A stretch of 64,000 nt of DNA from Escherichia coli. Lineage in GTDB: Bacteria > Pseudomonadota > Gammaproteobacteria > Enterobacterales > Enterobacteriaceae. Of the stretch, positions 23,238 to 24,870 are shown piece by piece; within the stretch, counting starts at the first letter, position 1; the number at the start of each line of letters is the position of its first letter. The notes beneath the pieces are model-generated. The model worked only from the letters and a program-made list of their open reading frames with translations. It was not told the DNA's origin and searched no databases. The translations under genes were made by a program, and so were the position numbers. The stretch is taken from the NCBI RefSeq assembly GCF_045037415.1, contig NZ_CP173438.1; one strand, written 5' to 3'.

Positions 23238-23316
23238 CAACGCTTTTAACGGATACGACGCTGTATCTGACCAAAATAACTTGCGATTTATCCGGTGCGC
23301 GGTAAAACCCCGTCCT

Positions 23317-23517
23317 TCAGGGCGGGGATATAAGTTCGCCATCCATTTCAACCCGTTCAGCTTCAAAATCAGCACATACATTTGAAAAGTAAGTGCGTAG
23401 TTTTTCTGTCGCGTCATGGTCAAAAATCTGGCGTTGGTATTTGGCGACAAAGACCAGGTGAACATGCATCAGGAAAACACAATGCCTTCCACGCCGGATA
23501 TCGGTTTCTTTTTTCAT
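23317..23517 (-). pseudogene. tnpA: Truncated IS200/IS605 TnpA (HuH Y1 transposase), N-terminal fragment only
   Basis: 66 aa frame with HVHLVFVAKYQRQIF resembling the TnpA N-terminal motif (YHIVFAPKYRRQ-like); stops before the HuH and catalytic Tyr region; stop codon lies inside the left-end hairpin. Confidence 0.6.
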
Positions 23518-23539
23518 AGACCAAAATATAATTTGACCT

Positions 23540-24748
23540 GTGAAACGACTACAGGCATTTAAATTCCAGTTAAGACCCGGTGGTCAACAGGAGCGTGAAA
23601 TGAGGCGCTTCGCAGGCGCATGTCGTTTCGTTTTCAATCGTGCTCTGGCGCTTCAGAATGAGAATCATGAGGCCGGTAATAAATACATCCCTTACGGGAA
23701 AATGGCTTCCTGGCTGGTTGAGTGGAAAAATGCCACTGAAACGCAATGGCTTAAAGATTCTCCCTCACAGCCATTGCAACAGTCACTGAAAGACCTTGAG
23801 CGGGCTTACAAAAACTTCTTCCAGAAGCGGGCTGCTTTTCCCCGATTCAAAAAGCGGGGACAGAATGATGCATTCCGCTACCCGCAGGGCGTTAAGCTCG
23901 ATCAGGAAAACAGCCGTATTTTTCTGCCGAAACTTGGTTGGATGCGCTACCGGAATAGCCGTCAGGTCACGGGAGTTGTGAAAAATGTCACTGTCAGCCA
24001 GTCCTGCGGTAAGTGGTACATCAGTATTCAGACAGAAAGTGAAGTATCAACTCCGGTTCACCCTTCAGCATCAATGGTCGGGCTGGATGCTGGCGTGGCT
24101 AAACTCGCCACGCTGTCAGATGGCACAGTCTTTGAGCCTGTAAACAGTTTTCAGAAAAACCAGAAGACGCTGGCGAGACTTCAGCGACAGTTAAGCCGCA
24201 AGGTCAAATTCAGCAACAACTGGCAGAAGCAGAAACGCAAAATACAGCGGCTGCATTCCTGTATCGCAAATATCCGCAGGGACTACCTTCACAAAGTCAC
24301 AACGACCGTCAGCAAAAACCACGCAATGATAGTCATTGAGGATTTGAAGGTCAGCAACATGTCAAAGTCAGCAGCGGGTACGGTCAGCCAGCCGGGGCGC
24401 AATGTCCGGGCAAAATCAGGTTTAAACCGTTCGATACTGGATCAGGGCTGGTATGAAATGCGCCGCCAGCTTGAGCACAAGCAGCTCTGGAGTGGCGGTC
24501 AGGTGCTTGCTGTTCCGCCAGCGTACACAAGCCAGCGTTGCGCGTGCTGTGGTCATACAGCGAAAGAAAACCGCCTGTCACAAAGTAAATTCAGATGCCA
24601 GGTATGTGGATATACAGCGAACGCCGATGTAAATGGCGCTCGTAACATTTTAGCGGCGGGGCACGCCGTTCTTGCCTGTGGAGAGATGGTGCAGTCAGGC
24701 CGCCCGTTGAAGCAGGAACCCACCGAAATGATTCAGGCGACAGCCTGA
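23540..24748 (+). CDS. tnpB: TnpB (IS605 OrfB family; RuvC-like RNA-guided endonuclease family), InsQ-like
   Basis: 402 aa, GTG start; RuvC-I (VGLDAGV), RuvC-II (IVIEDLKV), zinc finger (CACCGH...CQVCG), RuvC-III ([10 protein letters not shown]); sequence recalled as IS609 InsQ-like. Confidence 0.88.
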
Positions 24749-24790
24749 ACGTAGCAGGGATCCACGTCCTTCAGGGCGTGGAGGATGTCA

Positions 24791-24830
24791 ATTCATAGGC
24801 CTGGTAAGCGCAGCGCATCAGGCCATTACG
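24791..24830. repeat. REP-like palindromic element next to the IS right end
   Basis: aggcctggtaagcgcagcgcatcaggcc resembles the REP consensus (GCCTGATGCGCT...CAGGCC). Confidence 0.5.
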
Positions 24831-24839
24831 TCGTAAAAT

Positions 24840-24861
24840 CCGGCAGAGTCCTCTCTGCCGG
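24840..24861 (-). terminator. Putative terminator downstream of hslO
   Basis: ccggcagag-tcctct-ctgccgg hairpin immediately after the hslO stop on the minus strand. Confidence 0.45.
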
Positions 24862-24870
24862 ACATACTCA

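Follow-up and report, generated by a model that had tools for sequence, protein, structure and literature searches.

A decayed IS609 copy between yhgE and hslO of ST131-type Escherichia coli: loss of the catalytic part of tnpA by a 248-bp deletion beside an intact tnpB

Within the IS200/IS605 family, the genes of IS605 are divergent, as they are in the element described here, while those of IS608 (H. pylori) and ISDra2 (D. radiodurans) are co-directional. The targets also differ, being TTAC for IS608 and TTGAT for ISDra2 versus TTTAT for the present element, and the right end of IS608 terminates in TCAA, as does the right end found here. IS609 is present in E. coli K-12 MG1655 (1503161-1504908, the yncK pseudogene plus insQ), and our literature search for IS609 or insQ returned inventory mentions only and no functional study. 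A nearby tnpA accompanies about 25% of tnpB genes while most have none, and mobilisation in trans of tnpB-only elements is the accepted model (Meers et al., 10.1101/2023.03.14.532601). According to the TnpB model published in the same work, the guide comes from the flank and the target is the empty allele next to the TAM; the wild-type TAM reported there for one G. stearothermophilus TnpB is TTTAT.

The window analysed here is a stretch of 64,000 nucleotides of E. coli contig NZ_CP173438.1. The region that concerns us is 100% identical to ST131-type chromosomes, e.g. SK1144, in which the gene order is pckA, yhgE, element, hslO, hslR, yrfG. As judged from its sequence, the element between yhgE and hslO is a decayed IS609 copy of the IS200/IS605 family, ordinary and already annotated: in RefSeq, PGAP labels the 66-aa ORF a pseudogene ('transposase; incomplete; missing C-terminus') and the 402-aa ORF insQ. 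Its features, in window coordinates, are as follows.

23287..23291, + strand: TTTAT target motif directly 5' of the left end; in the flank, outside the element; insertion-site motif and presumed TnpB TAM
23292..24791, + strand: whole IS609 derivative, 1,500 bp; flanks joined without the element are contiguous in ~1,820 genomes; 98% DNA identity to K-12 IS609
23292..23334, + strand: retained left end, 43 nt, aligning to IS609 nt 1-42; linker containing TAAAA (presumed cleavage-site guide), imperfect hairpin 23308-23327 with TTCA loop, and 7 further nt
23317..23517, - strand: tnpA remnant, 66 aa; the first 61 codons native, the next 5 frameshifted, then TGA; without HUH H64/H66 and Tyr130
23334..23335: junction of the 248-bp internal deletion, ATATAAG followed by TTCGCC, 1 bp (G) of microhomology; from the alignment with the K-12, EC17GD31 and 1000C-3 copies
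23518..23539: 22-bp spacer between the divergent tnpA start (CAT 23515-23517) and tnpB start (GTG 23540)
23540..24748, + strand: intact tnpB/insQ, 402 aa; RuvC D183/E267/D363 and zinc-finger C334/C337/C353/C356
24621..24791 (approximate), + strand: presumed omega-RNA scaffold, which overlaps both the 3' end of tnpB and the right end; placed after the ISDra2/Gst paradigm
24749..24791, + strand: right end; hairpin 24761-24782 with TTCA loop, terminating in GGAGGATGTCAA; terminal sequence identical to the annotated K-12 IS609 end
24792..24811, + strand: 3' flank TTCATAGGCCTGGTAAGCGC, present in the empty site; presumed omega-RNA guide segment, a role assigned after Meers et al., 10.1101/2023.03.14.532601

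The boundaries follow from the empty site, which was searched for with the two flanks joined in silico. In AR_0013 it reads GCGATTTAT joined to TTCATAGG, that is, TTTAT and then TTCATAGG (the sequence after the junction is also written TTCATAGGCC), and this uninterrupted site places the element at 23292-24791, inserted 3' of TTTAT with no target-site duplication. The same motif lies 5' of every IS609 copy examined, including those of K-12, L003 and L005, and the matches of other copies start at TTTAT. Members of the family characteristically insert 3' of a short, specific motif and leave no target-site duplication; they also have subterminal imperfect palindromes in place of terminal inverted repeats, and both ends of the present element are of this kind. 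K-12 was rejected as the empty-site reference, its yhgE-hslO spacer being a different haplotype: comparison of window positions 23238-23291 and 24792-24870 with L004 2654-2715 showed that both this spacer and the yhgE C-terminus of K-12 differ in haplotype from those of ST131-type and AR_0013-type strains. At least three haplotypes of the spacer occur in the genome collection. A REP-like palindrome, GGCCTGGTAAGCGCAGCGCATCAGGCC, occupies window positions 24798-24824, starting 7 nt right of the insertion point and lying partly inside the presumed guide/target region.

In DNA folds of the + strand, both ends form hairpins of 8-9 bp, each closed by a TTCA loop and containing a G-T pair; the corresponding hairpins of the - strand are weaker. 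For the left end, the 8-bp stem with its G-T pair is obtained on the + strand only. The flanking TTTA pairs in the fold with TAAA just 5' of the left-end hairpin, which resembles the cleavage-site/guide pairing of IS608. A single C-to-G change, at 23301 in the linker, distinguishes the left end from that of other copies.

An earlier note on this sequence had described the minus-strand frame as a 66-aa N-terminal TnpA fragment, cut before the HUH motif and the catalytic tyrosine, with its stop inside the left-end hairpin and both element ends retained. This description stands. The ORF at 23317-23517 encodes the residues given there and matches only the N-terminal part of the relevant profiles (positions 1-49 of 121 of Pfam Y1_Tnp, E 1.7e-8; positions 2-54 of 126 of NCBIfam IS200), its C-terminal five residues, LISPP, are frameshifted, and its TGA stop (the complement of 23317-23319) falls inside the TTCA loop of the hairpin at 23308-23327. 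Full-length IS609 TnpA can be aligned with the IS608 and ISDra2 transposases, whose structures are solved; mapped on IS608 TnpA, its H64/H66 (PDHVHLL) correspond to H64/H66 and its Y130 (RQYIEQ) to Y127. All of these lie beyond the breakpoint, the protein being cut off three residues ahead of the HUH histidines and far ahead of Tyr130, so that residues 1-61 are all that is left and no catalytic residue remains. The complete Y1 HUH transposase of an autonomous member is thus missing, and the element reads as a defective derivative, not as an autonomous IS609.

The earlier note had also proposed mapping an internal deletion against full-length IS609, and the comparison with three such copies (K-12, EC17GD31 and 1000C-3) revealed one structural difference: 248 bp, IS609 nt about 44-291, are missing, so that the window copy measures 1,500 bp versus 1,748 bp in K-12. 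On either side of the gap both ends of IS609 align at high identity (nt 1-42 at 97.6%, nt 292-1749 at 98.0%). The breakpoint, at 23334/23335, was placed by eye and with blastn, as a MAFFT alignment put the left end of the short copies wrongly. Mis-cleavage by TnpA was considered as the cause of the deletion and rejected, since neither breakpoint adjoins a TTAT- or TCAA-like site.

The two divergent starts had been remarked upon as lying only 22 bp apart. The spacing is correct, and the same divergent geometry occurs in all full-length IS609 copies; the tight layout is a property of IS609, not of the deletion, and is not special to this locus. A sigma-70 consensus scan near the spacer found no promoter match of at least 9 of 12 positions. 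By eye, a perfect TATAAT is seen at 23527-23532, 7 nt upstream of the tnpB GTG and without a good -35, where K-12 has TATCAT; if it were used, the tnpB transcript would be nearly leaderless.

The 402-aa product of the second gene has the sequence hallmarks of a TnpB: a full-length match to NCBIfam guided_TnpB NF040570 (381.5 bits versus a cutoff of 100, residues 7-372), a RuvC D-E-D triad and a zinc finger, with D183/E267/D363 aligning with D191/E278/D361 of ISDra2 TnpB. The gene is intact in all five compared copies that have both element ends, with pairwise dN/dS of 0.16-0.41 based on few substitutions. The same deletion allele at the same locus in strain AH21B066 (L006) carries 15 differences within ~125 bp equivalent to window positions 23445-23568, running from the tnpA start across the spacer to the tnpB start and including 3-bp and 1-bp deletions that alter the TnpB N-terminus, while the remaining 6.2 kb has 26 differences; this cluster may reflect a patch of gene conversion, local decay or clustered read errors.

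Downstream, sub-threshold matches to Rfam HgcC, sot0042 and RAGATH-18, all on the + strand, fall within 24621-24801 (HgcC at 23.6 bits versus a gathering score of 50), and the RNA fold of this region is better than that of shuffled sequence (z = -3.5). These three Rfam families may describe omega-RNA-like transcripts of TnpB elements, and with these matches and by analogy we presume an omega-RNA here. By the published TnpB model we infer a presumed guide, TTCATAGGCC, and as its presumed target the empty allele, TTTAT followed by TTCATAGGCCTGGTAA (also given as TTCATAGGCCTGGTAAGC). TnpB and its omega-RNA may still cut this empty-site allele (TTTAT plus TTCATAGGCC and onwards).

The flank, left end and junction occur together in 549 of 5,426 complete E. 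coli genomes, once in each. Between 424 and 485 records are at least 99% identical to the window element, and the 30 listed are all 100% identical. Other IS609 copies in E. coli lie at ydcL/ydcO, yoaG/yeaQ, ytfA, yajI and yfaY and on plasmids. At no locus other than yhgE-hslO was the deletion allele seen among the sampled matches (about one per 55-90 records, a density at which rare copies at other loci could be missed), and the remaining sampled matches all extend no further than the left end. Among these matches there is no sign of movement after the deletion.

An intact tnpA elsewhere in the genome, which the earlier note had suggested looking for, was sought on ST131-type chromosomes with a chimeric query (the deleted segment joined to a unique stretch of yhgE) and a count of places per record, followed by a spread search with the deleted segment. 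In records of this type the deleted segment has a match at exactly one other place. This match lies between ybcM and yedK (L017 3501-4162, strain 5392) and corresponds to IS609 nt 119-780, without either end; its TnpA keeps the HUH motif and breaks after PGYFVSSC, before Y130, and its tnpB is cut after ~95 codons. This fragment and its flanks are 100% identical among the ST131-type genomes listed. PGAP calls it an intact 179-aa 'IS200/IS605 family transposase', despite the missing catalytic tyrosine and the fusion to unrelated sequence, and a query spanning the fragment and its flanks was covered to at least 80% in 2,086 genomes. In SK1144 the four known IS609 sites at ydcL-ydcO, yoaG-yeaQ, yajI and ytfA are all empty, and no second IS609 copy was found within the window. 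On ST131-type chromosomes, megablast (sensitive to identities of about 85% or more) found no catalytically complete IS609 tnpA; across the collection, ~50 plasmid places match the deleted segment, and a plasmid of the source strain could carry an intact IS609. That the ST131-type lineage has no chromosomal IS609 helper is a new detail of this analysis. It also modifies what had been proposed for the element, namely that it cannot mobilise itself and needs TnpA in trans: the catalytic part is indeed gone, but with no chromosomal helper the copy is probably stuck, not merely dependent.

Full-length copies offer a side observation on the length of tnpA. In L005 (2711-3184) and L011 (2491-2964) the tnpA frame stays open for exactly 158 codons within the element, with no stop there, and reads through the left-end hairpin into the flank, where PGAP flags it 'missing C-terminus'; the C-terminal tail thus depends on the insertion site.

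The explanation that we find very probable is an ancestral insertion that carries the 248-bp deletion and is a tnpB-only, non-autonomous and most likely immobile fossil. In this account, an ancestor of the ST131-type lineage received an IS609 copy between yhgE and hslO, on the 3' side of TTTAT. The copy has a single deletion that takes away TnpA from residue 62 on, including the HUH motif and Tyr130, the frameshift running into a stop in the loop of the left-end hairpin. With these residues removed, self-excision and transposition would be lost, while the two ends with their cleavage-site and guide sequences are retained, as are tnpB and the presumed omega-RNA region. Since the catalytic tyrosine is also missing from the other chromosomal IS609 tnpA, vertical inheritance without mobility is the most likely state of the copy, as far as sequence can tell. 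A sequencing or assembly error, or a naturally short IS609 TnpA, would also account for the short frame, yet either is hardly conceivable: the identical junction and flank recur in 549 independent complete genomes from many laboratories, which means that the deletion is not an assembly artefact, and the canonical protein has ~136 conserved residues in a 158-codon frame in full-length copies and covers the whole IS200 profile (positions 2-126 of 126), with tnpA sequence spanning at least 80% of the deleted segment in 4,328 genomes.

Some mobility could nevertheless persist if TnpA supplied in trans by a plasmid or an incoming element excised and re-inserted the copy, with TnpB and its omega-RNA restoring the donor site by homing. 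In favour of this, the copy still has its two hairpin ends together with TTTAT as cleavage context and TAAA as presumed guide; IS609 has evidently been mobile in E. coli, with copies at several loci and on plasmids; and the trans model for tnpB-only elements is accepted. We consider it unlikely, however, because ST131-type chromosomes hold no catalytically complete IS609 tnpA and the deletion allele has been seen only at yhgE-hslO, once per genome, in 549 genomes. It is still less probable that the yhgE-hslO copy, one of two transposase-dead IS609 remnants in the ST131-type lineage, is a fixed, still active TnpB/omega-RNA module that cuts the common empty allele and so acts as a small recombination drive or locus guard without transposition. 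A related idea would account for tnpB having stayed intact next to a dead tnpA: the host may have co-opted TnpB and its omega-RNA, or the pair may persist as a selfish guard of the locus, and they would cut empty-site alleles that arrive there, perhaps along with further matches flanked by TTTAT. Indeed, tnpB is intact with its catalytic residues, while the IS609 copies examined show four independent disruptions of tnpA (a stop in K-12, a frameshift in EC17GD31, and one in each of the two ST131 copies), and an empty allele matching the guide is common (~1,820 genomes). Against such a role, which we regard as very improbable, the allele is clonal (the 424-485 records at least 99% identical), so the intactness of tnpB says little about selection; a dN/dS below 1 is equally expected for a recently active element; and an intact tnpB with a decayed tnpA is the general pattern in the IS200/IS605 family.

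Read as a fossil, the window copy is a clean, datable example of tnpA loss with tnpB kept, the common state of the IS200/IS605 family, and is of little importance outside annotation. For the ST131-type lineage, the deletion allele serves as a stable marker. Should TnpB and its omega-RNA prove active, this locus would offer a natural example of an RNA-guided nuclease outlasting its transposase in a major human pathogen clone, although the sequence requires none of it.

The element can be compared with three sets of known systems. IS608 and ISDra2 encode transposases homologous to IS609 TnpA (E about 1e-20 and 1e-18, respectively), with the HUH motif and tyrosine at equivalent positions, and share with the window copy ends made of subterminal imperfect hairpins, but the transposase of the window copy is truncated; ISDra2 TnpB is likewise homologous to the window TnpB (E 1.6e-53) and has the same RuvC triad. 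K-12 IS609 has ~98% DNA identity to the window copy, the same ends, the same divergent layout with a very short spacer, the TTTAT flank and a 402-aa InsQ/TnpB. It is, however, full length and located at ydcL-ydcO, its tnpA being inactivated by an in-frame stop, whereas the window copy is located at yhgE-hslO and lacks 248 bp. Finally, the tnpB-only, non-autonomous IS200/IS605 elements (IS1341-type, e.g. ISGst; Meers et al. 2023) resemble the window copy, with its presumed omega-RNA region, in having both ends, tnpB and such a region and no working tnpA. G. stearothermophilus keeps an autonomous copy, whereas no chromosomal helper accompanies the window copy, and in contrast to the ISGst elements the latter keeps a recognisable tnpA stub, from which it follows that the loss is recent and that its cause, one deletion, is still visible.
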